The notes under the pieces: model-generated
Databases searched by the model: none
Told to the model about the DNA's origin: nothing
What the model saw: the letters and a program-made list of their open reading frames with translations, nothing else
Program-made: the position numbers and the translations under genes
NCBI GenBank assembly: GCA_024276515.1
Contig: JAJRXB010000198.1
Coordinates: 1 to 55,549, forward strand
Reading direction: 5' to 3'
Length of the DNA stretch: 55,549 bases
Source: Chloroflexota bacterium
Lineage (GTDB): Bacteria > Chloroflexota > Anaerolineae > 4572-78 > NAK82
In this document: positions 10,263 to 41,603 of the stretch, piece by piece
Position numbering within the stretch: position 1 is the first letter of the stretch
How the letters are laid out: every line of letters begins with the position of its first letter

Positions 10263-10644
10263 CAACACCCTCCAGGCTGAGCCAAATCGGCGAAGCGGAA
10301 TAAACCACCTCATTATAGCATTGCTCAGCCTGGAGTTCAACCGTGAGTGCGTAGCCCCTTCAGGCATCACGTTAGTTTCTTGAGAGGACAGGTTGGCGGC
10401 AGACGATCATCAGCGGATAGGTAACGGATGAACGGGTGTCTCTCCTCGCGCCAGCGTGTGATCCGCTCATCCGCTACTTTATCCGTTGATAATCTCCTCC
10501 GCTCGTCAGGGGTCTGTGACCCCTGACCGGGCGCGGGATGCCGGCGCTCGCTGGCAGCGCCGGCATCCCCGCTCCAGCGCGCCCATTCCCCGAAATCCGA
10601 ACGTACCCTACCAGGATAGACAAGTCACCCGAACGGGTGTAAAC

Positions 10645-10689
10645 TGCTCAGGTGACAGGCACTTTCGAAAGTGCCTGTCGCCTGAGCAG
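10645..10689. repeat. 45-nt near-perfect hairpin related to the arms of the 114-nt element
   Basis: CTGCTCAGGTGACAGGCACTTTCGAAAGTGCCTGTCGCCTGAGCAG. The arm CTGCTCAGG-TGACAGGCACT resembles CT(G/A)CTCAGG..GTGCCAGGCACT at 26318 and 36625. Confidence 0.75.
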
Positions 10690-10715
10690 CCACATCACCC
10701 AACCGGAGAGGAGAA

Positions 10716-17223: not shown

Positions 17224-17394
17224 CCCTACTGCAGGGCTTTTCAATGTTCTAGCGCGAGCAAGGTGACAGTCACCTTACTCGACATAACACATTGACAAAA
17301 ACAGTAAGAAATGGTTGTCAAGTGCCTTCCTCTCGCCAAGAGATCGGAGGTGACTGTCACCTGGGTTAACTCTTTGAAAAGCCCTGCCCCTACT
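17224..17394. mobile_element. MITE-like insertion (157 bp, 14-bp perfect TIRs, 7-bp target-site duplication) in the nuoH-nuoJ spacer
   Basis: TIRs GCAGGGCTTTTCAA (17231-17244) and TTGAAAAGCCCTGC (17374-17387). Flanking direct repeats CCCTACT at 17224-17230 and 17388-17394. Internal palindromes AAGGTGACAGTCACCTT (17261-17277) and AGGTGACTGTCACCT (17348-17362). No transposase ORF. Confidence 0.7.
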
Positions 17395-17997: not shown

Positions 17998-18306
17998 ATG
18001 ATCCCACTCTACTGGTGGCTCGTTGTGGCCGCTGCCCTGTTTTGCATCGGATTGTATGGCGTGTTGTCGCGCAAAAACGCCATCGGCGTGCTGATGGGCA
18101 TCGAGTTGATGCTCAATGCGGTGAACGTGAACCTGGTCGCCTTTTGGCGTTACGTGACGCCCCAAACGCTGACCGGCCAGGTGTTTGCCATCTTCGTCAT
18201 CACCGTGGCGGCAGCCGAGGCAGCGGTGGGTCTGGCGATTATCATCGCCGCCTACCGCCGGCGCGACACGGTCATCGTGGACGAGTTGGATATTATGCGC
18301 TGGTGA
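17998..18306 (+). CDS. nuoK: NADH-quinone oxidoreductase subunit K
   Basis: 102 aa. [60 protein letters not shown]. Confidence 0.95.
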
Positions 18307-23931: not shown

Positions 23932-24348
23932 ATGGGCTGTCTCTTTGGGGTGGGTACTTTAACCATTTTCTTATGAATTTCCTATTAAATTCCAAGCCCT
24001 CTGTAGTAAGATGGAGGCGGCTTCAAAAGAGCCAGGGTTGTTGGGCACTTGTATTTTGATACAGGCTCTCAACGGCGATCCCCATCCGATAAACTCGTTG
24101 CTTGCTTTCTCGGTTCTCCTTTTCCAGATTGATCGATCGCGTTTTGCGATGGCGGGATTCTTCGCTCCCTTCGGTCGCTCAGAATGACATCGTAGTAGGT
24201 GAAGTACGGTCGTGGTATTAGCTTGATGGGGATAACTCTTACAAACCAGATGAAAGTTCGTGCGAGTGCAACTGAAAGACGTGTTTCAGTTGCACTCAAT
24301 ATACATGTAGCTTTTTGGGACTTGTCGAGTGGATGAGAGACGATTTCT

Positions 24349-25230
24349 ATGAGGACGTTGCATTATCGCGTGTTGTTGTTAGCAGCGTGGCTGCTGTTTT
24401 TCTACAACCTGGAGCGCGTTAGCAAGCTCGTCAGCGACCAGCGCATTGATCTGTTGACGCCTTATGCCTACGTGTTCGTTGCCCTGGTTGCACTGGTCAC
24501 CCTGGCTTTGCCGGCAATGCACCGGCTTCCACTGTCCCTGCTGATTTCGGCAGGGGTCGTCGTATTCCTGGTTTCCAAAGCGTGGTTTGGCTATCCGCTG
24601 TGGGGCGAGGCCTTATCTTTGACTGTTACCGAGGCGGGTGCTTTTCTCGTTACGGGCTTGTTGGCCCGCCAGGTGATTTGGGCCATCCGGGAGTTTGAGA
24701 CTTCTATCGTCAATTTCACAATCAACCGTGTAGGCCGGCACTCCAAGACCTTTGCCATCGAGCAGGGGGAGATGTATCAGGAGGTTCGTCGAGCCAGGGA
24801 GTTCAATCGCCCTCTGACGTTGATAGCCATAGAGCCTGAGGTCAAGTCGTTTAAAGTCGCTGTAGAGAAGATGGTAGAAGAGGTGCAACAGGCGACGATG
24901 AAGCAATACGTCTTGGCTGCCCTGGCTAAAAGGCTGGAAGATCAGCTTAGTCCTTATAGCATCATAGCTCAGGATGGCGATACTTTCCTCGTTTTGCTGC
25001 CCGAAACCTCCAGAGAGGACCTTCCACGGCTGGAGGCTCGATTGTGTGGGCTGGCGCAAGAGTCGCTTGGGCTGGAGTTGCGGATTGGGGTGGCTACCCT
25101 GCCTGAGGTCGAGACATTCGATGAATTGATAAGGACGGCGCGCGATAAGATGAAGAGTAAGACGCAACAGCGACCGGAAAGGGCTGTCAAGCCCACGGTG
25201 ACCTCAGCGCAGAGTCAGATCAACCCGTAG
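24349..25230 (+). CDS. Membrane protein with C-terminal degenerate GGDEF-like domain
   Basis: About 4 N-terminal TM helices. C-terminal half aligns by eye to the GGDEF fold: RRAREFNRPLTLIAIE.., IAQDGDTFLVLLPETS (DGDTF in place of GGDEF), RIGVATLPE..ELIRTARDKM. Confidence 0.7.
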   Translation: MRTLHYRVLLLAAWLLFFYNLERVSKLVSDQRIDLLTPYAYVFVALVALVTLALPAMHRLPLSLLISAGVVVFLVSKAWFGYPLWGEALSLTVTEAGAFLVTGLLARQVIWAIREFETSIVNFTINRVGRHSKTFAIEQGEMYQEVRRAREFNRPLTLIAIEPEVKSFKVAVEKMVEEVQQATMKQYVLAALAKRLEDQLSPYSIIAQDGDTFLVLLPETSREDLPRLEARLCGLAQESLGLELRIGVATLPEVETFDELIRTARDKMKSKTQQRPERAVKPTVTSAQSQINP

Positions 25231-25267
25231 TATGGGGTATAGGGGCTTTTAAGGGAGGAGAGGCTTT

Positions 25268-25942
25268 ATGGAACTTGTTATTTTCCACCGTCCTCGAGTG
25301 CTCTTACAGAGAAAGGGATACCAGGTTGCCAAACGGCTGCTCGATTTGACGCTCAGCCTTCTGATCTTGCCGTTTGCACTGATCATAATGTTTGTTTGTG
25401 CGGTGGCGATTGCCCTGGATTCGCCGGGTCCTGTTCTGTTTGTGCAAACCCGGGTTGGTAAGGGGGGACACCGTTTTAAGCTATATAAGTTTCGCACGAT
25501 GTATGAGAACTGCGATGCTGAGGGTCATCGTGCATTTATGAAGGCATTCATAAATGGTCAGGTAGATGACCTGGCAGCCGAGAAAACGGTGTACAAACCG
25601 TTCAGCGACCGGCAACTCACGCGTGTGGGGCGCATACTACGTAAGACCAGCCTCGACGAATTGCCACAGCTTTTCAACGTGATCAGGGGAGAGATGAGCC
25701 TCGTCGGCCCCCGGCCCAATGTTCCCTGGGAGGTCGAAGAATACCGGGGCTGGCACAAGGAGCGCCTGGAAGTGTTGCCGGGCATCACCGGTCTGGCTCA
25801 GGTGCGGGGGCGGAGCGGGCTTCGATTTGACCAGATCGTTCATTACGACATCGAATATATTGAGAGGCGAAGTTTTAAGATGGACCTTCAGATCCTGTGG
25901 TGGACTGTGGTTTCGGTCCTGGCAGGCAAAGGCGCGCACTAG
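25268..25942 (+). CDS. Priming phosphoglycosyltransferase (bacterial sugar transferase family, PglC/WbaP C-terminal type)
   Basis: KRLLDLTLSLLILPFALII, DSPGPVLFVQTRVGKGGHRFKLYKFRTM, DELPQLFNVIRGEMSLVGPRP. GGGAGGAG RBS. Confidence 0.92.
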   Translation: MELVIFHRPRVLLQRKGYQVAKRLLDLTLSLLILPFALIIMFVCAVAIALDSPGPVLFVQTRVGKGGHRFKLYKFRTMYENCDAEGHRAFMKAFINGQVDDLAAEKTVYKPFSDRQLTRVGRILRKTSLDELPQLFNVIRGEMSLVGPRPNVPWEVEEYRGWHKERLEVLPGITGLAQVRGRSGLRFDQIVHYDIEYIERRSFKMDLQILWWTVVSVLAGKGAH

Positions 25943-26086
25943 TGCTCTGTCAAGACTGAATTGATGGGTGATCTTGACCCCTACGGCGGCTGTTTTTGCC
26001 CTTCAAATCATCTTTGACAGAGTACTAGGCTCCACGGCGTTTCGCACGTCGCGTCGTAAATAGAGAACTTTTGGTTTTGTGGTTAT

Positions 26087-26121
26087 GTGAGTCATCCGAA
26101 CGAGATGACTCACTGTTCTTT
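26087..26121 (+). terminator. Possible terminator/attenuator hairpin in the gap between the priming transferase and rfbF
   Basis: GTGAGTCATC CGAACGA GATGACTCAC followed by TGTTCTTT. A longer-range inverted repeat (25939-25954 / 26013-26028, 14 of 16 bp) lies just upstream. Confidence 0.35.
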
Positions 26122-26317
26122 AGAGAGGCTGAATGCCGAATCCCTGGGCTATCAAGCCCCACGTCGTGCAGCTTTTAACCCGTTTCTAACTATTTTCTAA
26201 TAATTCTCCCATTGAGTTCTAAATGTTCTGTGTTACCATCGTGTTGTCCAACGCTTTTGGCGACAGGGTGGGGTTGGTGGCCGCAGTCTCTACATCGGTC
26301 GATGTGATTTTTTGTTA

Positions 26318-26431
26318 CTACTCAGGCATAGGTGCCAGGCACTCATAGAGCCGTCTTTTTGCCAGGTTGATAGCGCGTACAAACTGATTTTGGCTCAAGT
26401 TATCTGCCAAAAGTGCCTGGCACCTGAGTAG
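26318..26431 (+). repeat. 114-nt hairpin element, copy A (53 nt upstream of the rfbF start)
   Basis: 108 of 114 positions are identical (hand alignment) to 36625-36738, in the same orientation. The termini CTACTCAGG..GTGCCAGGCACT and AGTGCCTGGCACCTGAGTAG are inverted repeats. Confidence 0.9.
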
Positions 26432-26484
26432 TAACAAAGATACTCAAGATACTCATTGAACGTAAAGGCCAGGAGGTTGTTTTC

Positions 26485-27261
26485 ATGAAAACGGTAATTC
26501 TCGCCGGCGGCTACGGGACACGCATCAGCGAGGAAAGCACTGTGAGGCCCAAACCGATGGTAGAGATCGGCGGCAAGCCGATCCTGTGGCACATTATGAA
26601 AATTTACTCCGCCCACGGCATCAACGACTTCATCATCTGCTGTGGCTACAAGGGTTATATGATTAAGGAATACTTCGCCAATTACTTTCTCTATATGTCC
26701 GACGTCACCTTCGATATGAAAAACAATAAGATGGAAGTTCATCAAAACAGCGCTGAGCCGTGGCGGGTAACGTTGGTCGACACCGGCGACGAGACGATGA
26801 CCGGCGGGCGACTCAGAAGGGTTAAGGATTACATTGGCAACGAAACGTTTTGCTTTACCTATGGAGATGGCGTCGCGAATGTGGATATTAAGCGGCTGAT
26901 TCACTTTCACCGGGAGCAAAAGACACTGGCCACCCTGACAGCGGTCCAGCCACCAGGGCGATTTGGGACTTTCAATTTGGCGCAGGAGCAAACCAGAATT
27001 TCTCACTTCAGAGAAAAGCCCCAGGGCGATGGCGCCTGGATTAACGGCGGGTTTTTCGTTCTGGAGCCGGCCGTGATGGATTACATCACCGGTGACTCAA
27101 CCGTTTGGGAGCAAGAGCCGCTAAAAAACCTGGCGCGGGATGGTATGCTATCGGCGTACAGGCATTACGGGTTCTGGCACCCGATGGATACGTTACGCGA
27201 CAAAAACGTTCTCGAAGAGTTGTGGGCTTCGGGTAACCCTCCCTGGAAAGTTTGGCAATGA
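26485..27261 (+). CDS. rfbF: Glucose-1-phosphate cytidylyltransferase
   Basis: [62 protein letters not shown] is highly characteristic of RfbF/DdhA. Confidence 0.95.
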
Positions 27262-28331
27262 ACAGGACATTCTGGAAGGGCAAAAAGGTCCTGATCACCG
27301 GCCACACCGGTTTTAAAGGCGGTTGGCTGGCCATATGGTTGCAAAAGCTGGGCGCCGACGTGCTGGGATATGCCTTATCCCCGCCGACCGAGCCAAGCCT
27401 GTTTGAGGTAGCCCGTGTAGCCGACGGGATGACTTCTATCACGGGCGACGTTCGTGACCTGGAACACCTCAAGGCCGTCGTCGCCGAGCACCGACCCGAA
27501 ATCGTCATCCACATGGCCGCTCAGGCATTGGTGCGCTATTCTTATCGCAACCCCGTAGAAACATATGCAACCAACGTGATGGGCACGGTGAATGTGCTGG
27601 AGGCAGTCCGGCAGACAGAAAGCGTGCGCGTCGTGGTCAACGTCACCAGCGACAAGTGCTACGAAAACAAGGAATGGGTTTGGGGATACCGAGAAAACGA
27701 GCCAATGGGTGGACATGACCCCTATTCCAGCAGCAAGGGATGCGCAGAACTGGTCACATCCGCTTATCGGAATTCTTACTTTCCCGTGGCGGATTATCCA
27801 CGCCACGGGGTAGCGATTGCCAGCGCCCGGGCCGGTAACGTGATCGGCGGTGGGGATTGGGCTCAGGACCGTCTCGTCCCCGACGTCGTGAATGCTTTTA
27901 TGGAAGGCCGGCCCGTGATCATCCGTAGCCCCCGTGCCATCCGTCCCTGGCAGCACGTGCTGGAGCCGCTCAGCGGCTATCTGTGCCTGGCAGAACAGTT
28001 GTGGGAGCGGGGGGCGGAGCTCGCCCAGGGCTGGAATTTTGGACCCGACGACGACGCCAGACCCGTCTTGTGGATTGTGAAGTACCTGGCCGATCTCTGG
28101 GGTGAGGGAGCCGGCTGGGAATTGGACTCGGCAGAGCACCCGCACGAGGCCCACTACCTGAAACTGGACTGCTCCAAGGCCAAAAGCTTGCTGGCGTGGT
28201 CGCCGAGGCTGCGCCTGACTACGGCCCTGGAATGGACTGTCGAATGGTATCAGGGCTACCGGCGGGACGAAGATATGCGCTGCCTGACCGAAGCCCAAAT
28301 TGCGCGCTACGAAGATATGGAGGCGGCATGA
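27258..28331 (+). CDS. rfbG: CDP-glucose 4,6-dehydratase
   Basis: [36 protein letters not shown] (YxxxK). ATG at 27258 overlaps the rfbF stop (ATGA). The ORF-track TTG lies at 27252. Confidence 0.95.
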
Positions 28332-28861
28332 TCTTCCGAGAGACAGAACTCAAAGGCGCGTTTATCATTGAATTGGAAAAACTGGAGGACGCGCGGGGCT
28401 TTTTTGCCCGGGCGTGGTGTCAGAAAGAATTTGAAGCGCATGGTCTGACGGCGAGGTTGGTTCAGTGCAACCTCTCTTTCAACAAAAAACGAGGGACGTT
28501 ACGAGGTATGCATTACCAGGCCGCCCCCTACGAAGAGGTTAAATTGGTCCGATGCACCAGGGGCGCGGTATACGACGTCATCATCGATTTGCGGCCAGAA
28601 TCGCCTACCTACAAGCAGTGGCTAGGCGTGGAATTGACGGCCGACAACTACAAAATGCTCTACGTGCCCGAAGGTTTTGCTCACGGGTATCAAACCCTCA
28701 CCGACGACGCCGAGGTGTTTTACCAGGTATCCCAGTTTTACACGCCGGCGTCTGAGCGGGGCGTGCGCTGGGATGATCCGGCGTTTGGCATCGAGTGGCC
28801 GGAAACCGACACGCGGATCATTTCGGACAAGGACGAGAGTTGGCCGGATTACGCGCAATGA
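28328..28861 (+). CDS. RmlC-like sugar-nucleotide 3,5-epimerase (cupin)
   Basis: DARGFF, LRGMHYQ, KLVRCTRGAVYDVIIDLR, YVPEGFAHGYQTL. ATG at 28328 overlaps the rfbG stop (ATGA). Confidence 0.9.
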   Translation: MIFRETELKGAFIIELEKLEDARGFFARAWCQKEFEAHGLTARLVQCNLSFNKKRGTLRGMHYQAAPYEEVKLVRCTRGAVYDVIIDLRPESPTYKQWLGVELTADNYKMLYVPEGFAHGYQTLTDDAEVFYQVSQFYTPASERGVRWDDPAFGIEWPETDTRIISDKDESWPDYAQ

Positions 28862-30114
28862 GGTCGGGGACGTACAAAAACAATCGCATTGCAGGTTTTC
28901 TGGCCGATACCTGGTGGTTTGGACTTTCCAAAAGGCTGTCGGAGGAAGATTTTGAGAGGCTGGCGGCGCTTCGCGCCGAACAGGGCTTTTCGGCGGTCCA
29001 GCTTGTCGTTGGCGTGCCGCCGGAGGTTGGCCCCGAAAATGAAAACGCCCAAAGCCAGGCAGGGTTTCCGTGGACGCTCGATGGCAACTTCAATCCAAAA
29101 TATCTGGAGCTTGCCCGAGACAAAATACAATATCTGAATGACCTCGGCTTGCTCGTCATCGTCTATGGTGCCTGGGGCCATCAAATCCAATGGCTTGGCA
29201 AGGAGAGAATGGCCCAATGGTGGGCAAAGATAATAGAAACTTTGGACTCGCTCGATGTGATATACTGTCTGTGCGGCGAAAGTAATTTGTGGGTGGGAGA
29301 AGAGTCGCAATTGCTGCCTGCCCGGTCCACGGACGACCTGGTGCGGAGTCGCGTACTATCCTGGTTGCCGGCGGGGATGCGCAGTCGTTTGGGTGAAGCG
29401 GTCAAATGTTTCAGGCGACCGCTCTACCGACGCCAACTCGAAAAACGTCGTGACGACTGGAGTTTTGTGCTGGAGACAATATCGCAACGCACCGACAAGC
29501 CTGTCATCGTCCATCCTGTCTCTTATGAAACGGGTTACGAGGCGGTCGCCAACCCGCAATTGTTGTCCGCCAATACGGTCCAAACGGGGCACGACGCAAG
29601 CGCCAGAAATCGCTTGTGGCGGCAACCGCTGGCGTTGTTGAAAGATGATCCTGCTCACAAGGGGTTCATCAATCTGGAGCCGTGGTACGAGGGCATATGC
29701 GATCAGTTTTGGGCCGAAGATCAAATGTTTGCCTACTGGGTGACCATGTTGGCAGGAGCGACAGGCTATTGTTATGGGGCTCACGGAATCTGGAACGTGG
29801 GAGACGGCGAGTTTCTGGCTCATTGGGGAAAACAAACGTTTGCTCAGGCGATGGCGCTCGACACACCCAGATTGCTCGGTCTTTCTCACAAACAGTATTT
29901 GCTGCGGTGGCATCACCAGGGTGAAACTTTTTACCAAACGGTGGGAGACGAGCTGATAACCATTGGGAGAAAGGCCGGGGGCAAGGTGATCCAATTCTTC
30001 CCAGAGGTCGGCAGGGCCAGCTACGTCCCTGGTGGGAAAATTTGGCTTCCCCTTGAGGGTGTTTTTGCAGAGAGATTGCCACCCCACGGACAAATAGTCA
30101 TCTTCCGTGATTGA
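28858..30114 (+). CDS. DUF4038 / GH140-like TIM-barrel protein (putative glycoside hydrolase fold)
   Basis: FLADTWWFGLSKRLSEEDFERLAALRAEQGFSAVQLVVG resembles the DUF4038 N-terminus. ATG at 28858 overlaps the epimerase stop (ATGA). No signal peptide. The family call rests on recall, not a search. Confidence 0.6.
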   Translation: MRSGTYKNNRIAGFLADTWWFGLSKRLSEEDFERLAALRAEQGFSAVQLVVGVPPEVGPENENAQSQAGFPWTLDGNFNPKYLELARDKIQYLNDLGLLVIVYGAWGHQIQWLGKERMAQWWAKIIETLDSLDVIYCLCGESNLWVGEESQLLPARSTDDLVRSRVLSWLPAGMRSRLGEAVKCFRRPLYRRQLEKRRDDWSFVLETISQRTDKPVIVHPVSYETGYEAVANPQLLSANTVQTGHDASARNRLWRQPLALLKDDPAHKGFINLEPWYEGICDQFWAEDQMFAYWVTMLAGATGYCYGAHGIWNVGDGEFLAHWGKQTFAQAMALDTPRLLGLSHKQYLLRWHHQGETFYQTVGDELITIGRKAGGKVIQFFPEVGRASYVPGGKIWLPLEGVFAERLPPHGQIVIFRD

Positions 30115-30132
30115 AGAGAGAAGGGAGTGTAA

Positions 30133-31440
30133 ATGATCATCGTTGACAAGGCGCTGGAAAAACGACACCAGGAAGGCAATCCCGTCCGGGTGGCGATGGT
30201 AGGGGCTGGTTATATGGGGCGTGGCATTGCCCTTCAGATTATAACGGCGACCGTGGGTATGGAACTGGTCGCCATCTCGAACCGCACCCTCTCAGAGGCC
30301 GGTCGTGCCTATCGGGAAGCCGGCGTAGACGCGGTCAAGACAGTCGAGACTGTCGCTCAGTTGGAGGAGGCCATCAACCAGGGGCAATGTGCCATCACCG
30401 ACGATGCGCTGCTGCTTTGCCGGGCAGAAGGCATCGACGCCGTGATTGAAGTGACAGGCACGATTGAATTTGGTGCCCGCGTGGCACTGGAGGCGATTGA
30501 ACACGGCAAACACGTCATCCTGATGAACGCGGAACTCGACGCTACGCTGGGCCCGATTCTAAAGGTATATGCCGACCACGCCGGGGTGATCATCACCAAC
30601 GCCGACGGCGACCAGCCTGGCGTGATTATGAATCTCTACCGCTTTGTCAAGGCCATCGGCTGCAGGCCGGTTTTGGCCGGTAATATGAAAGGTCTCCACG
30701 ACCCCTACCGCACGCCCGAGACCCAGCGGGGATATGCGGCCAAATACCACCAAAAGCCGCGGATGGTCACGTCCTTCGCCGACGGAAGCAAAATTTCGAT
30801 GGAAATGGCGGTCGTGGCCAATGCAACGGGTTTCAAGGTTGGCCAGCGGGGCATGTATGGGCCGCACTGTGCTCACGTCAACGACACCGTGACTCTCTTC
30901 CCTATGGACCAGTTGCTTGGTGGTGGCCTCGTAGACTACGTTGTTGGTGCCGAGCCCGCGCCTGGGGTGTTTGTTTTGGGCTACAATGAGCACCCAATTC
31001 AGCAGCGCTACATGAGGTACTACAAGATGGGGGATGGTCCCCTGTACGTTTTTTATACCCCCTACCACTTGTGCCACCTGGAAGTGCCTCTGACCGTTGC
31101 CCGGGCTGTGCTCTTTGACGATGCCACTGCCACGCCCCTTGCCGGCCCGGTGTGCGAGGTAGTCACCGTCGCCAAGCGTGACCTGAAGGCTGGCGAAATG
31201 CTCGACGGCATCGGCGGCTTTACGTGCTACGGCGTGCTCGAAAACTCCGAGATCCGGCAGGTTGAAAATCTGTTGCCAATGGGGTTGTCTGAGGGGTGTT
31301 ACCTCAAAAGAGACATCCCAAAGGACCAGGTCATTACCTGCGCTGACGTAACCCTGCCCGAGGGACGTCTGTGCGACAAGCTGTGGGCCGAACAGAACGC
31401 TTACTTTGCCCTGTCCGAAGCTGTTGCAGTGATGGCGTAG
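30133..31440 (+). CDS. NAD(P)-binding oxidoreductase with C-terminal SAF domain (COG4091-like, homoserine-dehydrogenase-related)
   Basis: Rossmann motif VAMVGAGYMGRGIA, and the C-terminal segment VAKRDLKAGEMLDGIGGF is typical of a SAF domain. Candidate 4-ketoreductase of the CDP-sugar branch (inference). Confidence 0.75.
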   Translation: MIIVDKALEKRHQEGNPVRVAMVGAGYMGRGIALQIITATVGMELVAISNRTLSEAGRAYREAGVDAVKTVETVAQLEEAINQGQCAITDDALLLCRAEGIDAVIEVTGTIEFGARVALEAIEHGKHVILMNAELDATLGPILKVYADHAGVIITNADGDQPGVIMNLYRFVKAIGCRPVLAGNMKGLHDPYRTPETQRGYAAKYHQKPRMVTSFADGSKISMEMAVVANATGFKVGQRGMYGPHCAHVNDTVTLFPMDQLLGGGLVDYVVGAEPAPGVFVLGYNEHPIQQRYMRYYKMGDGPLYVFYTPYHLCHLEVPLTVARAVLFDDATATPLAGPVCEVVTVAKRDLKAGEMLDGIGGFTCYGVLENSEIRQVENLLPMGLSEGCYLKRDIPKDQVITCADVTLPEGRLCDKLWAEQNAYFALSEAVAVMA

Positions 31441-31563
31441 ATCGTGACCGGCCGGTGGGTGGACAGCGGCAGGCTAATTTATTCATAGAGGTTTCTAACT
31501 TTTTTCTTATACGAATCCCGTGTCTTTACTCTATCTTAGTGTAGCCCGGAGGCAACGTTCTAA

Positions 31564-32460
31564 ATGGCCGTAAAAGAATTCACCGAACCACAACCTGCCG
31601 TAGCCGCTTCTGCGCCTGTCGCACCGGACGAAGAGCCGGCGATTCATATTCGTATTGAAGCTTCCAAAGGCTGGGTTTCTCTCAAGCTCCGCGAGTTGTG
31701 GGAATATCGGGAACTGCTATACTTCCTCACCTGGCGTGACATCAAGGTGCGCTACAAGCAGACCGTGCTGGGCGCGGCCTGGGCCATCATCCAGCCCTTT
31801 TTCACGATGGTGGTCTTCAGTTTGTTCTTCGGCAAGTTGGCCAAAATCCCCTCGGACGGTATCCCCTATCCCATCTTCAGTTACGCCGCGCTGGTGCCCT
31901 GGACTTTCTTCGCCAGGGGACTTGGTCAGGCTTCAAACAGCCTGGTGAGCGGCTCTAAACTGATCAAGAAAGTCTACTTCCCGCGGCTGGCGATGCCGAT
32001 AGCCACCGTGTTGGGGGGGGTCGTAGATTTCGCTTTGGCGTTTGTCGTGCTGTTGGGGATGATGCTTGCCTACCGCATCATGCCCACCGTCAATGTGTTT
32101 TGGTTGCCGCTTTTTCTATTGCTGGCACTGATTACCTCCCTCGGCGTCTCCCTCTGGCTTTCGGCGATGAACGTGCAGTTCCGTGACGTGCGTTACACCG
32201 TCCCTTTCATCACCCAGTTCTGGATGTTTGCCACGCCGATTGCCTATCCCAGCAGCCTGATCAAGGACCCCTTGTTGCGGACAGTGTACGCTATCAATCC
32301 AATGGTGGGCGTGATAGAGGGCTTTCGGTGGGCCTTGCTGGGCACCGACACAGCGCCTGGCCGTATCATCATCGTTTCCTCGTTGGCAGCGTTGGTGATA
32401 CTCATCAGCGGGGCGTTCTACTTTCGCCGTATGGAAAGAACTTTCGCGGACGTCGTGTAG
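31564..32460 (+). CDS. wzm: ABC-2 type polysaccharide export permease
   Basis: LWEYRELLYFLTWRDIKVRYKQTVLGAAWAIIQPFFTMVVF, plus six predicted TM helices. Confidence 0.92.
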   Translation: MAVKEFTEPQPAVAASAPVAPDEEPAIHIRIEASKGWVSLKLRELWEYRELLYFLTWRDIKVRYKQTVLGAAWAIIQPFFTMVVFSLFFGKLAKIPSDGIPYPIFSYAALVPWTFFARGLGQASNSLVSGSKLIKKVYFPRLAMPIATVLGGVVDFALAFVVLLGMMLAYRIMPTVNVFWLPLFLLLALITSLGVSLWLSAMNVQFRDVRYTVPFITQFWMFATPIAYPSSLIKDPLLRTVYAINPMVGVIEGFRWALLGTDTAPGRIIIVSSLAALVILISGAFYFRRMERTFADVV

Positions 32461-32471
32461 GGTAATTCAAA

Positions 32472-33800
32472 ATGAGCGGTATTGCAATCCGAGTAGAGAA
32501 TCTGAGCAAGCAATATTACATCGGCAGGCTGCAGAAAAAGTACGAGACGCTGCGCGATACGTTAACCGACGCCCTCGTCGCGCCATTTCGCCGGGCGGGC
32601 AAGTTGTTGCGTGGCCAGGCCACCGGTGCGGCGGAATTGGACGAGGCCATCTGGGCTCTCAAGGACGTCTCCTTTGAGGTAAAGCGCGGTGAAGTGGTCG
32701 GCATCATCGGTCGCAACGGGGCCGGCAAAAGTACGCTGCTTAAGATCCTGTCGCGCATCACCGAACCAACGAGCGGATTTGCCGACATCTATGGTCGGGT
32801 GGGCTCGCTGTTGGAAGTGGGCACCGGTTTTCACCAGGAGTTGACCGGCAGGGAGAATATCTATCTCAACGGTGCAATCCTGGGCATGAAGCGAGTCGAG
32901 ATTGACCGCAAATTAGACGAGATTGTCGCCTTTTCGGAGGTGGAGAAATTCATTGATACGCCGGTCAAACACTATTCCAGCGGCATGCAAATGCGCCTGG
33001 CTTTTGCTGTGGCCGCTCACCTGGAGCCGGAGATTCTACTGGTAGACGAGGTTCTGGCCGTAGGGGATGCTCGCTTTCAGCGAAAATGTTTGGGCAAGAT
33101 GGAAGAGGTTGGGAAGGCAGGGCGGACGGTGCTTTTCGTCTCCCACAGTATGCCTGCCATCACCCGTCTGTGCGAGCGCGTGATCCTGCTGGATGAGGGC
33201 CGGATAGTGGCCGATGGACCAGCGCATCAGGCGGTCAGCGTCTACATGAGCTCGGGCCTGGGCACGACGGCTGCGCGCGAATGGCCGGACCCGGACAAGG
33301 CTCCGGGCGGCGAGATAGCTCGTCTTCGCGTCGTGCGGGTGTGTCAGGAGGATGGCAAGGTTGCGGATGCCGTGGACATTCGGCAGCCGGTGACGGTTGA
33401 AATGGGATATGAAGTGCTGAGAGAAGGCTACGTGCTATTGCCTCATTTTCACTTCTTCAACGAAGCCGGCATCCACGTTTTTGCAGCCCTCGACCAGGAT
33501 CCCAACTGGCGAAGGCGACCTCGTCCGGCAGGCTACTACGTGAGCAGAACCTGGATCCCCGGCAATCTGTTGGCAGAAGGGACAATGTTTGTCACGCCAG
33601 CTATGACAACCCTGGATCCCAACCTCCCCCAGTTTTACGAACGGGATGCAGTCGCCTTCCAGACTTTTGACACGCTTGACGGCGACTCAGCACGAGGCGA
33701 CTGGTCGAAACATCTGGGTGGGGTGATACGTCCACTTTTGTCGTGGGACACCGAGTTTGAACCAAACGGATATGGGCCCGGCAACGACCACGGACGGTAA
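32472..33800 (+). CDS. wzt: ABC polysaccharide export ATP-binding protein with C-terminal extension (Wzt-type)
   Basis: Walker A GRNGAGKST, signature YSSGMQMRLAFA, Walker B ILLVDEVLAVGD. A beta-rich extension of about 190 aa follows the NBD. Confidence 0.92.
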   Translation: MSGIAIRVENLSKQYYIGRLQKKYETLRDTLTDALVAPFRRAGKLLRGQATGAAELDEAIWALKDVSFEVKRGEVVGIIGRNGAGKSTLLKILSRITEPTSGFADIYGRVGSLLEVGTGFHQELTGRENIYLNGAILGMKRVEIDRKLDEIVAFSEVEKFIDTPVKHYSSGMQMRLAFAVAAHLEPEILLVDEVLAVGDARFQRKCLGKMEEVGKAGRTVLFVSHSMPAITRLCERVILLDEGRIVADGPAHQAVSVYMSSGLGTTAAREWPDPDKAPGGEIARLRVVRVCQEDGKVADAVDIRQPVTVEMGYEVLREGYVLLPHFHFFNEAGIHVFAALDQDPNWRRRPRPAGYYVSRTWIPGNLLAEGTMFVTPAMTTLDPNLPQFYERDAVAFQTFDTLDGDSARGDWSKHLGGVIRPLLSWDTEFEPNGYGPGNDHGR

Positions 33801-33848
33801 GTAATTACCGTCCGAGATTACCCTGGCGGTGCGTATCAGGAAAATGTG

Positions 33849-34886
33849 ATGACAAAAGTTGTGTATTTGATTGCATCCCATGTCAATCCACGGCAGATAG
33901 TGCGATTGGTAAGGACGCTAAGGGATGGCAGCCCTACAGCCTCAATTGTCATTCATCACGATTACTCCAGGTCTTATCTGGATCCCACGGCTTTTGCCGG
34001 CATAGATAGCGTTCACATTATAGAAGATTATATTTCTGTCCGGTGGGGACGTTTCTCACAGGTGGCGATGGTGCTGCACGCCTTCGAGTGGGCACTGAGC
34101 CATCTCGAGTTTGATTGGCTGGTGTTCATCTCTGGTCAGGATTACCCGATTCAACCGTTAAGTCAAATCGAGCGATTTCTGGAAACCACTCCCTACGATG
34201 GATTTATGAGGGGTGTGGCCCTGGAAGAGTCAATTCCCTGCGGCCCTGACGAATGTTCGATAGGGCAGGTCTCTGGAAAACTGTGCCTGGATTGTGTGTC
34301 ACGATACTACTACCAGTATTATGATCTTTACAGTCACAGCTTACCCCCCAGGCTTAGGAGGATATTGAAGAGAGTGGGGCGGTCCCTTTACAGAGCGCAG
34401 TCTCCTGTACAGGTCAGGCTGATCCCTTACAACGTTGAGCCTCGGCTGGTCATTGGCATTCGGTCGCCTGTCACGCCTTTTACGCCCGACTTCAAATGTT
34501 ACAAAGGTTCTCAGTGGTTCACTCTGAACCATAGCTGCATTCAATACATTCGTCAATTTGTCCGCACTCATGCCCGATTTGTGCGATACTATCAGCGCAC
34601 CCTTATGCCCGACGAGTCGTTTTTTCACACAATCATACTAAATCATCCTGCGTTCAAGATACTCAACGACAACAAGCGCTTTGTTAGCTGGCGTGATCAC
34701 ACGGCTCCAAGTCCACAAGTGCTGAGGGCACAGGACTTTGAGCACATTATCGCTTCGAACCAACACTTTGCTCGCAAATTCGACGTCAATGTGGATGCCG
34801 CCGTGCTAGGTATGCTTGACGAATACATCAACGCCGGGCACAAATTCGAGCTGTCCGTGGAGGAGAGACAGGCGTGGCGGATGTGA
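33849..34886 (+). CDS. Glycosyltransferase family 14 (core-2/I-branching enzyme fold)
   Basis: VVYLIASHVNPRQIVRLVRTL, VRWGRFSQVAMVLHAFEWAL, WLVFISGQDYPI, GSQWFTLNHSCIQYI, PDESFFHTIILN. A GTG alternative lies at 33846. Confidence 0.88.
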   Translation: MTKVVYLIASHVNPRQIVRLVRTLRDGSPTASIVIHHDYSRSYLDPTAFAGIDSVHIIEDYISVRWGRFSQVAMVLHAFEWALSHLEFDWLVFISGQDYPIQPLSQIERFLETTPYDGFMRGVALEESIPCGPDECSIGQVSGKLCLDCVSRYYYQYYDLYSHSLPPRLRRILKRVGRSLYRAQSPVQVRLIPYNVEPRLVIGIRSPVTPFTPDFKCYKGSQWFTLNHSCIQYIRQFVRTHARFVRYYQRTLMPDESFFHTIILNHPAFKILNDNKRFVSWRDHTAPSPQVLRAQDFEHIIASNQHFARKFDVNVDAAVLGMLDEYINAGHKFELSVEERQAWRM

Positions 34887-35779
34887 AAGGCCCTCAGCCC
34901 ACAGGGCTGTCGCGTCACCAGATGGTGAGTGTTATTCTTCCGGCGTATAACGCTGCGCATACTTTGGGCGAGCAGCTCGACGCGCTCAAGAATCAAGCGT
35001 ATGATGGCGACTGGGAAGTCATCGTGGTTAACAATTGCTCCACCGATGCCACTGTTGGCGTAGTTGAAGCCTATCAACGTGCAATGCCTCAATTGCGCCT
35101 TGTCCACGCGCCGGAGCGGCGGAACGTGTCGTATGCGCGCAACCTTGGGGTGCAGTCAGCTCACGGCGACGTGTTTCTCTTTTGCGACGCCGACGACGTG
35201 GTTGCGCCCGGCTGGCTGGCGGCGTTAGCAAAGGCCCTGAGAGAACACCATCTGGTCGCCGGGGTGCTCGGCAAACTGAGTCTGGCTGATCAGTTTCCGC
35301 CAGATTCATCGGAAATTCGTGACTTCTCGGCTTCGCCCCATTTGGACTTTCTACCGTTTGCTATCGGCAGTAATTGTGGAATTTCGCGCCAGGCATTCGA
35401 GGCGGTTGGAGGCTTTTCGCTTGAGTTTCCCAGGAATCAAGACGTTGACCTCTCCTGGCGACTGCAATTGCGTGGATACAAAATTCACACTGTACCGTCG
35501 GCGGTGGTGTATTGCCGTCCCTGGAAGTCGTTCTCGGTGCTGTGGAAGAAACACGTTTTGATGGGGGAGGCCGAAGTCAATCTTTACCGGAGATTCGCGG
35601 CCCATGGCATGCCTCGTTCTTCACTGCGGGCCGCGTTGAAGAGATATAAGTCGCTCATTAAGAAGGGAATACGCCTGCGGAGGGCAGGGTTGCCTTCGCG
35701 CCGGAAGTGGGTGTCTCAGGTTGGGCACTGCTGGGGCCGACTACGAGGTTCGTTACGCTATCGCACCCTTTATCCTTGA
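34874..35779 (+). CDS. Glycosyltransferase family 2
   Basis: VSVILPAYNAAHTLGEQLDALKNQ..WEVIVVNNCSTD, FCDADD. GTG at 34874 lies about 10 nt after GGAGGAG; an ATG alternative lies at 34922. Paralog of 36760-37635. Confidence 0.88.
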   Translation: MADVKGPQPTGLSRHQMVSVILPAYNAAHTLGEQLDALKNQAYDGDWEVIVVNNCSTDATVGVVEAYQRAMPQLRLVHAPERRNVSYARNLGVQSAHGDVFLFCDADDVVAPGWLAALAKALREHHLVAGVLGKLSLADQFPPDSSEIRDFSASPHLDFLPFAIGSNCGISRQAFEAVGGFSLEFPRNQDVDLSWRLQLRGYKIHTVPSAVVYCRPWKSFSVLWKKHVLMGEAEVNLYRRFAAHGMPRSSLRAALKRYKSLIKKGIRLRRAGLPSRRKWVSQVGHCWGRLRGSLRYRTLYP

Positions 35780-35827
35780 GGGAATGGACGCCTGAGTGAT
35801 TGCAAAATCGGACATTTTTAATAAGAG

Positions 35828-36613
35828 ATGTTAAAGACTACGAAGACCACAAACCATCACCACCTTTCTGGAATAGTAGACAGGCTCTCCAAAGCCGCAG
35901 CGCGGAGGATGTTGGGGACTATCACTCACGTTTCAACTCAGGATGCCGTTGTTGGCCTCACTTTTGACGACGGTCCCCATCCCGAATTCACGCCACGCCT
36001 GCTGGAGATCCTGGACAGGCATCAGGTGCGTGCGACTTTCTTTATGGTTGGCAAGGTTGCCCAGCGCCATCTGGAGCTTGTCCGGCAAGTGGCCCAGGCC
36101 GGACACGCTATCGGCAACCATTCTTGGGATCACCCATCCTTCCCGTTGATCACGCGGCGGGAGCGGTATGCCCAGCTCCGTGCCTGCGCGCAGGCCATCG
36201 CCCCTTACGGACAGCGGTTGTTCCGCCCACCGTATGGTCATCAGAGCGTGGCGTCGCGCTTTGACGCTCTGGTGCTTGGTTATCAGGTTGTTACCTGGAA
36301 TGTAGTTGCCCAAGATTGGCTCGATCGAGACGCAAACTGGATAGTCAATCGGGTAAAGGAGCGGATCAGGCCCGGCAGCATCGTTCTTTTCCACGACGCG
36401 CTTTGTGATCTGGAGGCGGAGCAATACATCGATCGAGGACCGATGCTCGCAGCGGTTGACATGCTCCTGGAGCGACTCGGCGACCGTTTTCGCTTCGTCA
36501 CCATACCCGAGTTGCTTCGCCACGGTTGCCCGCAAAAGCGAAACTGGTATCGGAGAGGGAATGTTGAGTGGTTGGACGCTCTTATAGATCAGACACGACC
36601 GTCAAGATCATAG
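35828..36613 (+). CDS. Polysaccharide deacetylase (CE4 / NodB homology domain), no signal peptide
   Basis: LTFDDGPHPEFTPRLLEIL, ATFFMVG, GNHSWDHPSF, LFRPPYG. Confidence 0.92.
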   Translation: MLKTTKTTNHHHLSGIVDRLSKAAARRMLGTITHVSTQDAVVGLTFDDGPHPEFTPRLLEILDRHQVRATFFMVGKVAQRHLELVRQVAQAGHAIGNHSWDHPSFPLITRRERYAQLRACAQAIAPYGQRLFRPPYGHQSVASRFDALVLGYQVVTWNVVAQDWLDRDANWIVNRVKERIRPGSIVLFHDALCDLEAEQYIDRGPMLAAVDMLLERLGDRFRFVTIPELLRHGCPQKRNWYRRGNVEWLDALIDQTRPSRS

Positions 36614-36624
36614 AAAGAGAGTAA

Positions 36625-36738
36625 CTGCTCAGGCATAGGTGCCAGGCACTTATAAAAGCGTCTTTTTGCCAGGTTGATAGCGCGTACAAACTGATTTTGG
36701 CTCAAGTTATCTACCAAAAGTGCCTGGCACCTGAGTAG
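36625..36738 (+). repeat. 114-nt hairpin element, copy B (21 nt upstream of the GT2 start at 36760)
   Basis: See copy A. The differences are 1 base at position 3, 4 bases in a 12-nt patch, and 1 base near the right arm. Confidence 0.9.
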
Positions 36739-36759
36739 GTAGTTGCGAAAGAGGGATTT

Positions 36760-37635
36760 ATGAAGCTGAGTGTGGTCATCCCATGTTACAACGCGGCTGA
36801 CACGATTGCCGAGCAGCTTGAAGCGCTGGCCAGTCAACGCTGGTCGGAGCCGTGGGAAGTGGTCGTAGCCGACAATGGCTGCACGGACAACTCGATGGAG
36901 ATCGTCAGGCAATATCAAGGGCGGTTGCCCAACCTCCGCATTGTGGACGCATCGGCCCGGCGGGGCTCCCCTTACGCTTTGAACACCGGAGTCGAGGCTG
37001 CCCGTGGCGAGTCTCTCGCCTTTTGCGATGCCGACGACGTGGTCGGCGACGGATGGCTGCCCGCCATCGGCCAGGCACTTTCCAAATACGATTTCGTCGC
37101 CTGCCGCTTCGACACGGAGAGGCTCAATCCCCCCTGGCTTCAGAAAAGTCGTAGCAATTACCAGAAGGAAGGACTCCCCAAATATCGCTATCCCCCTTAT
37201 CTCTCTCACAGCGGCGGCGGGGGCATGGGAGTGAAACGTGACCTTCACCAGGCCATAGGCGGCTTCGACGAATCGCTGCCCATCCTCCACGATACCGATT
37301 ACTGCTGGCGACTTCAACTGGCTGGCGTGGAACTCCATTTCGTGCCGGATGCCGTGATTCACGTCCGCTATCGCAAAACCTTCCGAGGCATCTACAAACA
37401 GGCGCGGGGCTATGCCGAGTACAATGTACTTCTATACAAACGATACCGGCCACTTGGGATGCCCGCACTTTCTTGGAAGAGAGGGGCACGCAGGTGGGTG
37501 CGCAGGTGGATACGCCTGCTCAAACGCCTTCCCTGCCTGCGTTCTAAGGGAGACCTGGCCAATTGGGTGTGGCAGATTGGCTGGCAGGTGGGACGACTGC
37601 AAGGCAGTATCAAACACCGGGTTCTCGCTCTTTAA
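36760..37635 (+). CDS. Glycosyltransferase family 2
   Basis: LSVVIPCYNAADTIAEQLEALASQ..WEVVVADNGCTD, FCDADD. The C-terminus GRLQGSIKHRVL parallels GRLRGSLRYRTL of the paralog. Confidence 0.9.
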   Translation: MKLSVVIPCYNAADTIAEQLEALASQRWSEPWEVVVADNGCTDNSMEIVRQYQGRLPNLRIVDASARRGSPYALNTGVEAARGESLAFCDADDVVGDGWLPAIGQALSKYDFVACRFDTERLNPPWLQKSRSNYQKEGLPKYRYPPYLSHSGGGGMGVKRDLHQAIGGFDESLPILHDTDYCWRLQLAGVELHFVPDAVIHVRYRKTFRGIYKQARGYAEYNVLLYKRYRPLGMPALSWKRGARRWVRRWIRLLKRLPCLRSKGDLANWVWQIGWQVGRLQGSIKHRVLAL

Positions 37636-37686
37636 ACGAGCCTGCCATTGCCGGGATAAACCAGCGCCGCAAACACAAAGAGAGCT

Positions 37687-38559
37687 ATGACAACCATGAT
37701 AACGTTTAGACCGAACTCGAACGTAACCAAACTGGTGCTCCTGACGACCCAGCGCTCAGGGTCCACTTACGTCCGACTTTGGCTGAACAGCCATCCCAAC
37801 GTTCGGTGCCACAGTGAAATATTCTATCGAGAGTACCCTGCTGCGGATGGTTTCAAAGCTTATTGCGAAGCCAATAGAGTGCGGCGGCTACTCTACCACA
37901 CATTGGGGAAACGTAAGTGGAGCAGGTCACCGTACAATTTCGTCATCAAATGGCTCGTCGAGCGCTTCTTACATAATCTTTACCGCAATCCAAAGTTCTC
38001 TGCCCCCTGGACGGATATGACGACCGATGCCTGGGTAGAATACCAGCCCAGAGAAGACGGTGGCCAGGAGAAGGTGGTCGGATTTCAGCTTATGTACGAT
38101 CAACTGGCCCGCTACAGCCCCCTGCAAAAGTGGGCAGCCGAACCTGACGTCTCTATCATCCACTTGATAAGGGAAAATGCCGTGAAATTGCTCATCTCCA
38201 GAATCGTGGCCAAGAAGACAGGGGCGTATCAATTTGCTCGAAAGAAGGGACCAAGGCCAAAGGTCTATCTGGATCCAACCGAAACAATATCTGAATTGAA
38301 CCGAATCGTGGGCTTGCGGGAAAAGATGAGAAAAAAATTCTCGAACAATCCATATTTGGAGATCACTTACGAGAGGTTCTTCTCTGAGTATCCCGTCGAA
38401 TCAGAAAGGGTATTCGCCTTTCTGGGGATTCCGAAAGCGGAGATGGAATTCCCTGCGTTTTTGAAGAAGTTGAATCCCAATTCTCTGGAAGACCTGGTGG
38501 AAAACTACGATGAGATCGCCGCGGCCTTGAGGGGAACACCTTACGAGCAGTTCCTGTAA
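37687..38559 (+). CDS. PAPS-dependent sulfotransferase family protein (Stf0-like)
   Basis: 5'-PSB loop LLTTQRSGSTYV and 3'-PB-like HLIRENAVKLLIS. No TM helix or signal peptide. Confidence 0.78.
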   Translation: MTTMITFRPNSNVTKLVLLTTQRSGSTYVRLWLNSHPNVRCHSEIFYREYPAADGFKAYCEANRVRRLLYHTLGKRKWSRSPYNFVIKWLVERFLHNLYRNPKFSAPWTDMTTDAWVEYQPREDGGQEKVVGFQLMYDQLARYSPLQKWAAEPDVSIIHLIRENAVKLLISRIVAKKTGAYQFARKKGPRPKVYLDPTETISELNRIVGLREKMRKKFSNNPYLEITYERFFSEYPVESERVFAFLGIPKAEMEFPAFLKKLNPNSLEDLVENYDEIAAALRGTPYEQFL

Positions 38560-38579
38560 ACGTCCGGGGAGAGATTGGC

Positions 38580-39281
38580 ATGATCCTCAGAAGGCTTCTT
38601 AAAAGGGCAACGGTCAGGTTAGGCATCTTGATTTATCAGGCGAATAACAAGATTGCGCGTGAGACGTTGCCGGAGTTTGGGAACACCCCCCGAAACTTGA
38701 GGATTGACTTACCCCGGCGGATTGTCAACCCCGAAAGGATGTTTCTCGGAGATGACGTCCGGTTGGGGCCAGGTTCCTTGCTCGTGGCCATCACCCATTA
38801 TCCCACGCCACCGATGCAACATCCAGAGAAGAACCAGGTCAAGCAAGAATTCAACCCAAGAATCGTCATTGGCCATCGAGTTACCGCAACCAGCAACTTG
38901 ACCGTGGCTGCGGTGAGCGAAATCGCCATCGAAGACGATGTAATGTTCGCTTCCAACGTCAATCTCACCGACGGCTTGCATGGATACGAGAACGCCAACG
39001 AGCCATACAAGTATCAAAAGATGTTCAGAATTGCCCCGATTCGGATTAAGCGAGGCTGCTGGATCGGTCAAAACGTGGTCATCCTGCCCGGTGTGACAAT
39101 TGGCGAGTACGCCATCGTGGGGGCGAACAGTGTGGTCACGAAAAGCATACCCGATAGGTGCATTGCCGTGGGAGCCCCCGCCCGAGTTATCAAGAAGTGG
39201 GATGACACCACTCAAAGCTGGGTTCCGGCAGCAGAAACAGAGACAAAACAAGGGGCGTCTGCTGGCATCGCCAGAGCTTGA
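38580..39281 (+). CDS. Hexapeptide-repeat (LbH) acetyltransferase
   Basis: IKRGCWIGQNVVILPGVTIGEYAIVGANSVVTKSIPDRCIAVGAPARVI. Confidence 0.88.
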   Translation: MILRRLLKRATVRLGILIYQANNKIARETLPEFGNTPRNLRIDLPRRIVNPERMFLGDDVRLGPGSLLVAITHYPTPPMQHPEKNQVKQEFNPRIVIGHRVTATSNLTVAAVSEIAIEDDVMFASNVNLTDGLHGYENANEPYKYQKMFRIAPIRIKRGCWIGQNVVILPGVTIGEYAIVGANSVVTKSIPDRCIAVGAPARVIKKWDDTTQSWVPAAETETKQGASAGIARA

Positions 39282-39362
39282 GTGTAGCCTTGTGAACCGC
39301 CGTATCAAGGGTGAGCACGATGTTTCAGCCACCTTCGCAAACTATTTTTCGAGGTCGATAAA

Positions 39363-41599: not shown

Positions 41600-41603
41600 C
41601 AGC

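Follow-up and report, generated by a model that had tools for sequence, protein, structure and literature searches.

Why do two nearly identical noncoding hairpins lie just upstream of two groups of glycan synthesis genes in the genome of an uncultured Chloroflexota bacterium? Both repeats were noticed in the window analyzed here, that is, the whole 55,549-nt stretch of contig C116, and three answers were entertained in an earlier note made from the sequence alone: a cis-acting leader RNA, a pair of direct repeats able to delete or exchange the module between them, and a MITE. On the evidence presented below, we consider it very likely that the two repeats, hereinafter copies A and B, are two independent insertions of a 122-bp MITE with IS66/ISBst12-type ends.

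Extent, fold and dispersal of the repeat

In an ungapped alignment, positions 26318-26431 and 36625-36738 are identical at 108 of 114 sites (94.7%) on the same strand, exactly as had been counted by hand, and a 45-nt core common to both repeats occurs exactly twice in the window and never in 100 shuffles. When the copies were aligned together with their flanks, conservation was found to run 4 bases further on each side, so that the 114-nt boundaries proposed originally omit the outer GTTA/TAAC. The true element is 122 bp long, and its two copies, both on the plus strand, extend from 26314 to 26435 (copy A) and from 36621 to 36746 (copy B), with 91.8% identity over the full element. The unit is laid out as GTTACTACTCAGG-CATAG-GTGCCAGGCAC … GTGCCTGGCAC-CCTGAGTAGTAAC, where the perfect 13-bp terminal inverted repeat (TIR) GTTACTACTCAGG is prolonged by the GTGCCAGGCAC arms. 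In copy A, both 13-bp termini (GTTACTACTCAGG / CCTGAGTAGTAAC) are perfect and the flanks are GATTTTTT and AAAGATAC; in copy B, the left terminus is GTAACTGCTCAGG and the right end is degenerate, with CCTGAGTAG+GTAGTTGC in place of CCTGAGTAGTAAC. The element has no coding capacity: the only ORFs of at least 80 aa that touch the copies, 26395..27006 and 36589..37362 on the minus strand, are located for the most part within the neighboring genes and were not called by the codon-usage caller.

The proposal that both copies can form long imperfect hairpins holds, with folding energies of about -55 kcal/mol (z about -6). The opposite strand of copy A folds equally well, which indicates a DNA-level inverted repeat rather than a strand-specific RNA feature. 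Furthermore, the covariation analysis that the earlier note had recommended provided no support for a conserved structure: the RNAalifold consensus over 16 diverse copies, including those of a sibling subfamily and the foreign copy described below, essentially consists of the invariant inverted repeats, with interior pairs broken about as often as compensated, and the covariation term was +0.31.

The window belongs to a 4.28-Mb assembly (580 contigs, 82%-complete, 61% GC), in which the 114-nt query produced 53 BLAST hits, including ~26 near-full copies on separate contigs, with 89-98% identity, and ~25 partial copies or fragments. According to our own simple codon-usage gene caller, all 30 copies of at least 70 nt are intergenic, bar one overlap. 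Divergent gene pairs flank ten of these, and a convergent pair flanks one; between tandem genes, 6 copies point with the genes and 7 against them, that is, the orientation is unbiased. Genes with their 5' ends toward the other copies are unrelated to one another and to glycan synthesis, and include those for SRP54/Ffh, acyl carrier protein (ACP), DegV, FTR1, TauE, Crp, methylaspartate ammonia-lyase, nitrite/sulfite reductase, thiolase and GlgC.

These observations bear on the suggestion that the repeats are dedicated to polysaccharide operons as a cis-acting leader or an antitermination RNA, with a function comparable to that of JUMPstart/ops. Both window copies indeed precede glycan genes, and this position is the only feature they have in common with JUMPstart/ops leaders. 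Otherwise, the element differs from such leaders in that it lacks the ops motif, is not restricted to glycan operons, shows no orientation specificity and is mobile. The ops 8-mer GGCGGTAG, which in such leaders is placed in the non-template strand, does not occur within or close to either copy, its nearest matches being at 18252 and 52922; neither copy contains a promoter-like or terminator-like site, and a search of the whole window against Rfam gave no match at the gathering score. The genome-wide search for copies that had been called for, carried out with BLAST in the organism's own genome and in its relatives, revealed that the copies are not confined to glycan operons: about 28 others are situated before or after unrelated housekeeping genes. 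None of the 40 examined relatives of the same family and order contains the element, and 8-bp duplications around its copies attest to mobility. Together with the lack of orientation bias and of covariation, these findings make a dedicated leader RNA extremely improbable.

Most of the intact copies have 8-bp direct duplications directly outside their ends, for example, CATTTTCG, GGTTTGTG, GTTGGCGT, ACCTCGGA, TTCTGATT and GATCAGAG. Among the 19 scorable copies of the 122-bp family, 7 have target-site duplications (TSDs) matching at 7 or more of the 8 positions, compared to 0.3% of shuffled left/right pairs. The 50-bp flanks of the elements have a mean GC content of 48%, lower than the 55% of random intergenic sites and the 61% of the genome as a whole, so the persistence of insertions in short AT-rich intergenic spots is a sufficient reason for the presence of two copies in the low-GC glycan locus. 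Contigs C138 and C122 likewise have two copies each, separated by a few kb (10 kb or less), which is roughly the chance level for 30 copies. Partial copies with breaks at position 64-67 share nothing upstream and, accordingly, are independent truncations; nested insertions were observed on contigs C228 and C85.

In the earlier note, dozens of copies scattered in both orientations were named as the sign of a generic MITE or REP, and this is the pattern that we observed, along with the 8-bp TSDs, in support of the MITE reading. The element is short (under ~600 bp) and non-coding, has terminal inverted repeats and a fixed 8-bp TSD, and is present in multiple dispersed copies, all of which are characteristic of MITEs. 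Well-known bacterial MITEs of 100-160 bp include the Correia elements (NEMIS) of Neisseria, the enterobacterial ERIC and the pneumococcal RUP, which have documented effects on transcripts. Like the 122-bp element, these are small, non-coding, multicopy and intergenic, with terminal inverted repeats, form hairpins when co-transcribed and are often located just upstream of genes; they differ from it in their ends, their parent IS families and the lengths of their duplications (TA in the case of Correia). REPs, which are 20-40-bp palindromes mobilized by RAYT (Y1) tyrosine transposases, lack TSDs, whereas the 122-bp element has the TIRs and 8-bp duplications that are hallmarks of DDE-type transposition.

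Outside of this genome, a scan of one genome per species yielded a single foreign copy. It belongs to a contig from an unrelated MAG (labelled Spirochaetes bacterium), is 79% identical and is flanked by a perfect 8-bp duplication, CGCGATTT. Conservation of this copy is 91% over the left 34 nt and 100% over the right 30 nt but only 69% in the interior, the pattern that would be expected if the ends are the functional part. No further termini were found in that MAG, and the possibility that the contig is a mis-binned fragment of a close relative was ruled out, given that it shares nothing else with this genome. A metagenome scan for the terminus plus the arm gave no match, and no other assemblies encoding identical flanking proteins were found for the strain comparison.

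Origin of the ends and related subfamilies

The 13-bp terminus is by no means limited to the 122-bp family. With up to 2 mismatches allowed, it occurs 195 times in the genome, compared to 48 times for the reversed motif; the exact 13-mer is found 52 times (26 forward, 26 reverse), as against at most 2 occurrences per genome, the control level, in 400 others from the same phylum. Elements of 41, 58-60, 91, 114, 122, 133, 138-143, 149-163, 256-266 and 495 bp are bounded by this terminus, which is common to at least 8 subfamilies with unrelated interiors, in the size range of 41-600 bp, and variants of GTTACTACTCAGG include GTAACTGCTCAGG and GTGACTACTCAGG. Among the paired elements with this terminus, 29 of 39 TSDs match at 7 or more of the 8 positions, compared to 0.2% in the control, and the duplicated 8-mers have a mean GC content of 46%.

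The 41-bp mini elements (C536:8299-8339, C575:4260-4300 and C232:6979-7019) consist of two termini fused at a GTGCC[A/T]GGCAC palindrome, and their duplications are perfect or match at 7 of 8 positions (ATTCCGGG, GAGAAGCG, AAAAAATG/AAAAAACG). The two arms of the longer element are direct repeats of each other at 10 of 11 positions, and the 41-bp forms may be either mobile units themselves or recurrent in situ deletions between the two arms. With their perfect duplications, they would rank among the smallest MITE-like units.

The ends point to the IS66 family and, within it, to the ISBst12 group. ISDge4 from Deinococcus geothermalis, a member of this group that encodes a single 449-aa transposase, has the TIRs GTGACTACTCAGCA / GTAACTGCTCAGCA and an 8-bp direct repeat (PMC12898284). 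The element terminus, GT[T/A/G]ACT[A/G]CTCAG[G/C], matches these TIRs at 12-13 of 14 positions, the target duplication is 8 bp in both cases, and the left end of copy B, GTAACTGCTCAGG, is nearly the same as the right IR of ISDge4. However, whereas members of the ISBst12 group are coding IS of ~1.6 kb, the element described here is a non-coding 122-bp unit, with an interior unrelated to the IS and arms that represent a separate palindromic clamp.

A search for PF03050 in relatives across the order identified transposases next to such ends in two members of the same family. One of these genomes (G004) contains a 1589-bp element with inverted GTAACTACTCAGCC ends, a perfect TSD, CTTTAAGG, and a frameshifted IS66-family transposase; in this element (L060, contig C14), the transposase is split over three frames of 184, 300 and 177 aa, reflecting either decay or programmed frameshifting. 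In the other genome (G007), a GTTACTACTCAGGCCATAGTG end and the MITE terminus are the same over 13 nt and similar over ~20 nt, and the ORF of an IS66-family transposase starts 47 nt in from this end. The transposases of these relatives contain the DUF6444, zf-IS66 and DDE_Tnp_IS66 domains and match NF033517 (Pfam, NCBIfam), and the architecture of both loci leaves no room for tnpA or tnpB, indicating that these are single-gene, ISBst12-type elements. Thus, the matching IRs and 8-bp repeats that typify ISBst12 are found in our genome, and a single-ORF IS66-type transposase beside such ends in the relatives only.

A cognate autonomous element with these ends is not present in the organism's own assembly. 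There, the PF03050 search detected only a canonical three-gene IS66 on contig C6, with different IRs (GTAAGCGCCC...), and neither a search for DUF6444 (PF20042) nor tblastn with the transposases of the relatives produced a hit in this 82%-complete assembly of 580 contigs. We infer that the partner transposase either has been lost or is encoded by the 18% of the genome that is missing from the assembly. The canonical IS66 (C6:~480-2870) is intact, with tnpA of 87 aa, tnpB of 118 aa and tnpC of 532 aa, encodes the only IS66-family transposase in the assembly, and is bounded by 20-bp IRs, GTAAGCGCCCTATGAACCCC, with GTTGCTGT as its 8-bp duplication. In canonical IS66 elements (tnpA-tnpB-tnpC), the IRs start with GTAAGCG and the repeats are 8 bp long (PMC11946415); the 8-bp duplication and IRs starting with GT.A are features in common with the MITE, but past the first four bases the IR is unrelated to the MITE terminus, so that the C6 element is an unlikely source of the mobilizing enzyme.

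Other candidate parents fared no better. Pairs of ends at IS-like spacing (C337, C4, C253 and C242) each resolved into two small elements, distinct from one another, on either side of ordinary genes, none of the nine DDE_Tnp_1 hits and one ISL3 hit carries the terminus, and transposases of the IS256 and IS1595 families are absent from this genome. Another repeat (…ACAGGA[C/T]TTACGCAGTTGGGTAGTCTCCCCGTTAAGCG…) recurs beside truncated copies (C337:12180-12330, C432:1160-1260 and C513:1040-2133) and has a match in the 17-bp inverted repeats flanking a DDE_Tnp_1 transposase on C513, probably a separate IS that has derivatives of its own.

From these features, we infer the following transposition mechanism. 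An ISBst12-type transposase, supplied in trans, would bind both inverted ends and move the element, leaving an 8-bp TSD, and the insertions would survive in short AT-rich spots between genes. The elements represent a lineage-specific burst in an uncultured bacterium, with at least 8 subfamilies and roughly 75-100 elements that have ISBst12-type IS66 ends, and with no autonomous partner in the assembly.

Copies A and B within the glycan locus

The gene assignments of the earlier note are borne out by Pfam, which identifies, in order, NTP_transferase, 4,6-dehydratase, ABC-2/ABC exporter, Branch/GT14, GT2 and CE4, followed by another GT2. A Bac_transf gene is located upstream of copy A, and immediately downstream is the gene for the sugar-1-phosphate nucleotidylyltransferase (rfbF-like, NTP_transferase; 26485..27261, plus strand). 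The rest of the interval between the two copies encodes a 4,6-dehydratase, an apiosidase-like protein, a DRL oxidoreductase, an ABC-2 permease, an ABC ATPase, Branch/GT14, GT2 and, directly upstream of copy B, a polysaccharide deacetylase (CE4; 35828..36613, plus strand). Copy B is followed by a family 2 glycosyltransferase (GT2; 36760..37635, plus strand), a sulfotransferase, a hexapeptide transferase, GT2 and GT4. The distances to the start codons were also reported correctly, with copy A 53 nt from the ATG at 26485 and copy B 21 nt from the ATG at 36760.

The claim that both copies occupy real intergenic gaps is accurate only for copy A, which lies in a genuine 542-nt spacer, 3' of a terminator-like hairpin (26087-26113) and a weak promoter-like match (26175-26204). 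At copy B, the gap was made by the insertion. An offset scan revealed a TSD around this copy that matches at 7 of 8 positions at a 4-nt offset, which is accounted for by the degenerate right end: the left copy, GAAAGAGA (36613..36620), shares the last base of the CE4 TAG stop codon, and the right copy, GAAAGAGG (36747..36754), contributes the purine run for ribosome binding, 5 nt ahead of the GT2 start codon (ATG) at 36760. Removal of the element along with one copy of the TSD yields TAGAAAGAGGGATTTATG, a junction in which 14 nt separate the stop codon of CE4 from the start codon of GT2 and the ribosome-binding site is intact. Because excision restores this tight junction, the apparent intergenic gap is the insertion itself, and copy B lies inside an operon; the spacer ahead of the second GT2 gene owes its existence entirely to the insertion. 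Copy B would thus have inserted in the 14-nt junction, with its duplication regenerating the ribosome-binding site.

Copies A and B have different relatives within the family. The closest to copy A are copies on C138 and C81 (95.9%), whereas copy B is closest to those on C209 and C168, with which it has diagnostic bases in common. Assignment to different sublineages implies separate insertions, and a local duplication giving rise to A and B is ruled out inasmuch as they are not sister copies. Copy A itself has no detectable TSD, its flanks matching at only 2 of 8 positions and an offset scan likewise giving no match, and no reciprocal flank partner was found for it in the genome. The combination of perfect termini with a missing TSD calls for a secondary event, and it is possible that the flanks of copy A result from a secondary rearrangement or from recombination between two older copies. 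The 9-mer AGATACTCA is perfectly duplicated in tandem at 26438-26455, 2 nt past the right end of copy A, that is, in a flank that lacks a matching TSD; this duplication could be the footprint of another event.

The history of the two copies is also pertinent to the suggestion that they serve, or once served, as direct repeats to delete, insert or exchange the 10-kb module between them (CDP-sugar genes, ABC exporter, GT14, GT2 and CE4). Part of this suggestion stands: the copies share one orientation at a distance of 10.3 kb and have a 54-bp stretch of perfect identity in common, so that RecA-dependent deletion of the module would be possible in principle, and the perfect ends and unrelated flanks of copy A are what recombination between two earlier insertions would be expected to produce. 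However, copy B retains its own target duplication, the two copies come from different sublineages, and copy A has no reciprocal partner. In addition, the left flank of copy A does not resemble the right flank of copy B, which rules out integration of the module, as a simple circle, at a resident copy, and the proximity of the two copies is unremarkable, considering that it recurs on C138 and C122 at about the frequency expected by chance. Neither is there a step in GC content at either repeat: it is uniformly low, 51-58%, over the 24-42 kb glycan region. Taken together, we regard the use of the repeats for the exchange of this module as very unlikely.

The glycan locus as a whole (24000-42000) has a GC content of 55%, compared to 62% for the rest of the window, and its genes received low scores from the codon-usage caller, which missed two of them (34874-35779 and 35828-36613). 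These properties are compatible with a horizontal origin of the complete locus, beyond the 10-kb interval between the repeats.

An insertion that originated by transposition could have subsequently been recruited for a host function. Specifically, the transposed hairpin, as part of the glycan operon mRNA, might now act as an intercistronic stabilizer, a processing site or an attenuator, thereby adjusting how strongly the sub-operons are expressed relative to one another, much as has been reported for REP, ERIC and Correia elements. Both copies lie between co-oriented genes, on the side of the coding strand and close to the start codons, at 53 and 21 nt; the hairpins are very stable (~-55 kcal/mol); copy B, being situated in a former tight operon junction, is almost certainly co-transcribed with its neighbors; and the inner clamp hairpin (see below) is conserved well beyond this genome. 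Against these points, the structure has no covariation support, no terminator-like tail or promoter was found, and the copies elsewhere occur in both orientations next to unrelated genes. On balance, recruitment of this kind seems unlikely.

Insertion of a MITE accounts best for both copies, with any regulatory or recombinational consequence at the glycan locus being at most a possible by-product, for which we found no support. A note of caution for the interpretation of such loci follows: the conserved hairpins are scars of mobile elements and do not constitute evidence of regulation of sub-operons.

The palindromic clamp

In its inner arms, GTGCCAGGCAC, the element carries a variant of a motif that recurs throughout the genome and that we denote the clamp. 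It consists of AGGTG[A/C]CAG[G/T]CAC, a loop and the complement, each arm being a GTGAC-N-GTCAC palindrome. The palindromic 11-mer GTG[A/C]C.G[G/T]CAC occurs 736 times in the genome, compared to 18 times for the reversed control, and 405 of these occurrences are GTGACAGTCAC or GTGACTGTCAC. In the window, clamp sites are located at 10652-10662, 17263-17273/17350-17360, 26332-26342/26413-26423 (the paired arms of copy A), 30451-30461 and 36639-36649/36720-36730 (those of copy B). A short hairpin relative at 10640..10693, GTAAACTGCTCAGGTGACAGGCAC-loop-GTGCCTGTCGCCTGAGCAGCCAC, combines the clamp with degenerate IS66-type ends.

Inverted pairs of clamps fall into sharply defined classes by spacing. 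Those 7-9 nt apart form ~53 naked hairpins; a spacing of 59-61 nt is typical of ~78 copies with the outer repeats AGAGTTGTTCC / GGAACAACTCT; 70 nt corresponds to the 122-bp MITE family of copies A and B; 72 nt is found in 30 copies; and 76-77 nt in ~27 copies with the TIR CAGGGCTTTTCAAAG and 8-bp duplications of their own. This distribution indicates that the clamp is a single hairpin module common to MITE families, at least three in number, with unrelated ends.

Rfam does not include the clamp, and the contigs that carry it gave only sub-threshold matches to generic (miRNA) hairpins; in the searched literature, only spurious primer-type matches were encountered. The exact naked hairpin (28 specified bases) is present in at least 120 metagenome contigs from diverse organisms that span 37-69% GC, and the coding DNA of the clamp-bearing metagenome contigs is at most 65-77% identical to this genome. 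It is conceivable, although we offer this only as a tentative and rather unlikely conjecture, that the clamp is a conserved functional module, either a protein-binding dyad or an RNA or single-stranded DNA hairpin, that has been repeatedly captured by the transposon ends of unrelated families. If the clamp does have a host function, the two copies in the glycan operon would bring that function along. The shared clamp, found in MITEs with unrelated ends and widely spread in metagenomes, is the one aspect of these elements that could open a new direction.

The ~53 naked hairpins are comparable to REPs in size. They favor convergent over divergent spacers, 8 vs 3 on an even background, and lack T-tails, so they look REP-like in these respects as well. 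In the window, the class with the 76-77 nt spacing is represented by positions 17224-17394, a second MITE family with the same inner clamp but different ends, and on contig C85, one copy of this family, with the CAGGGCTTTTCAAAG TIR, is inserted into the end of an IS66-type element.
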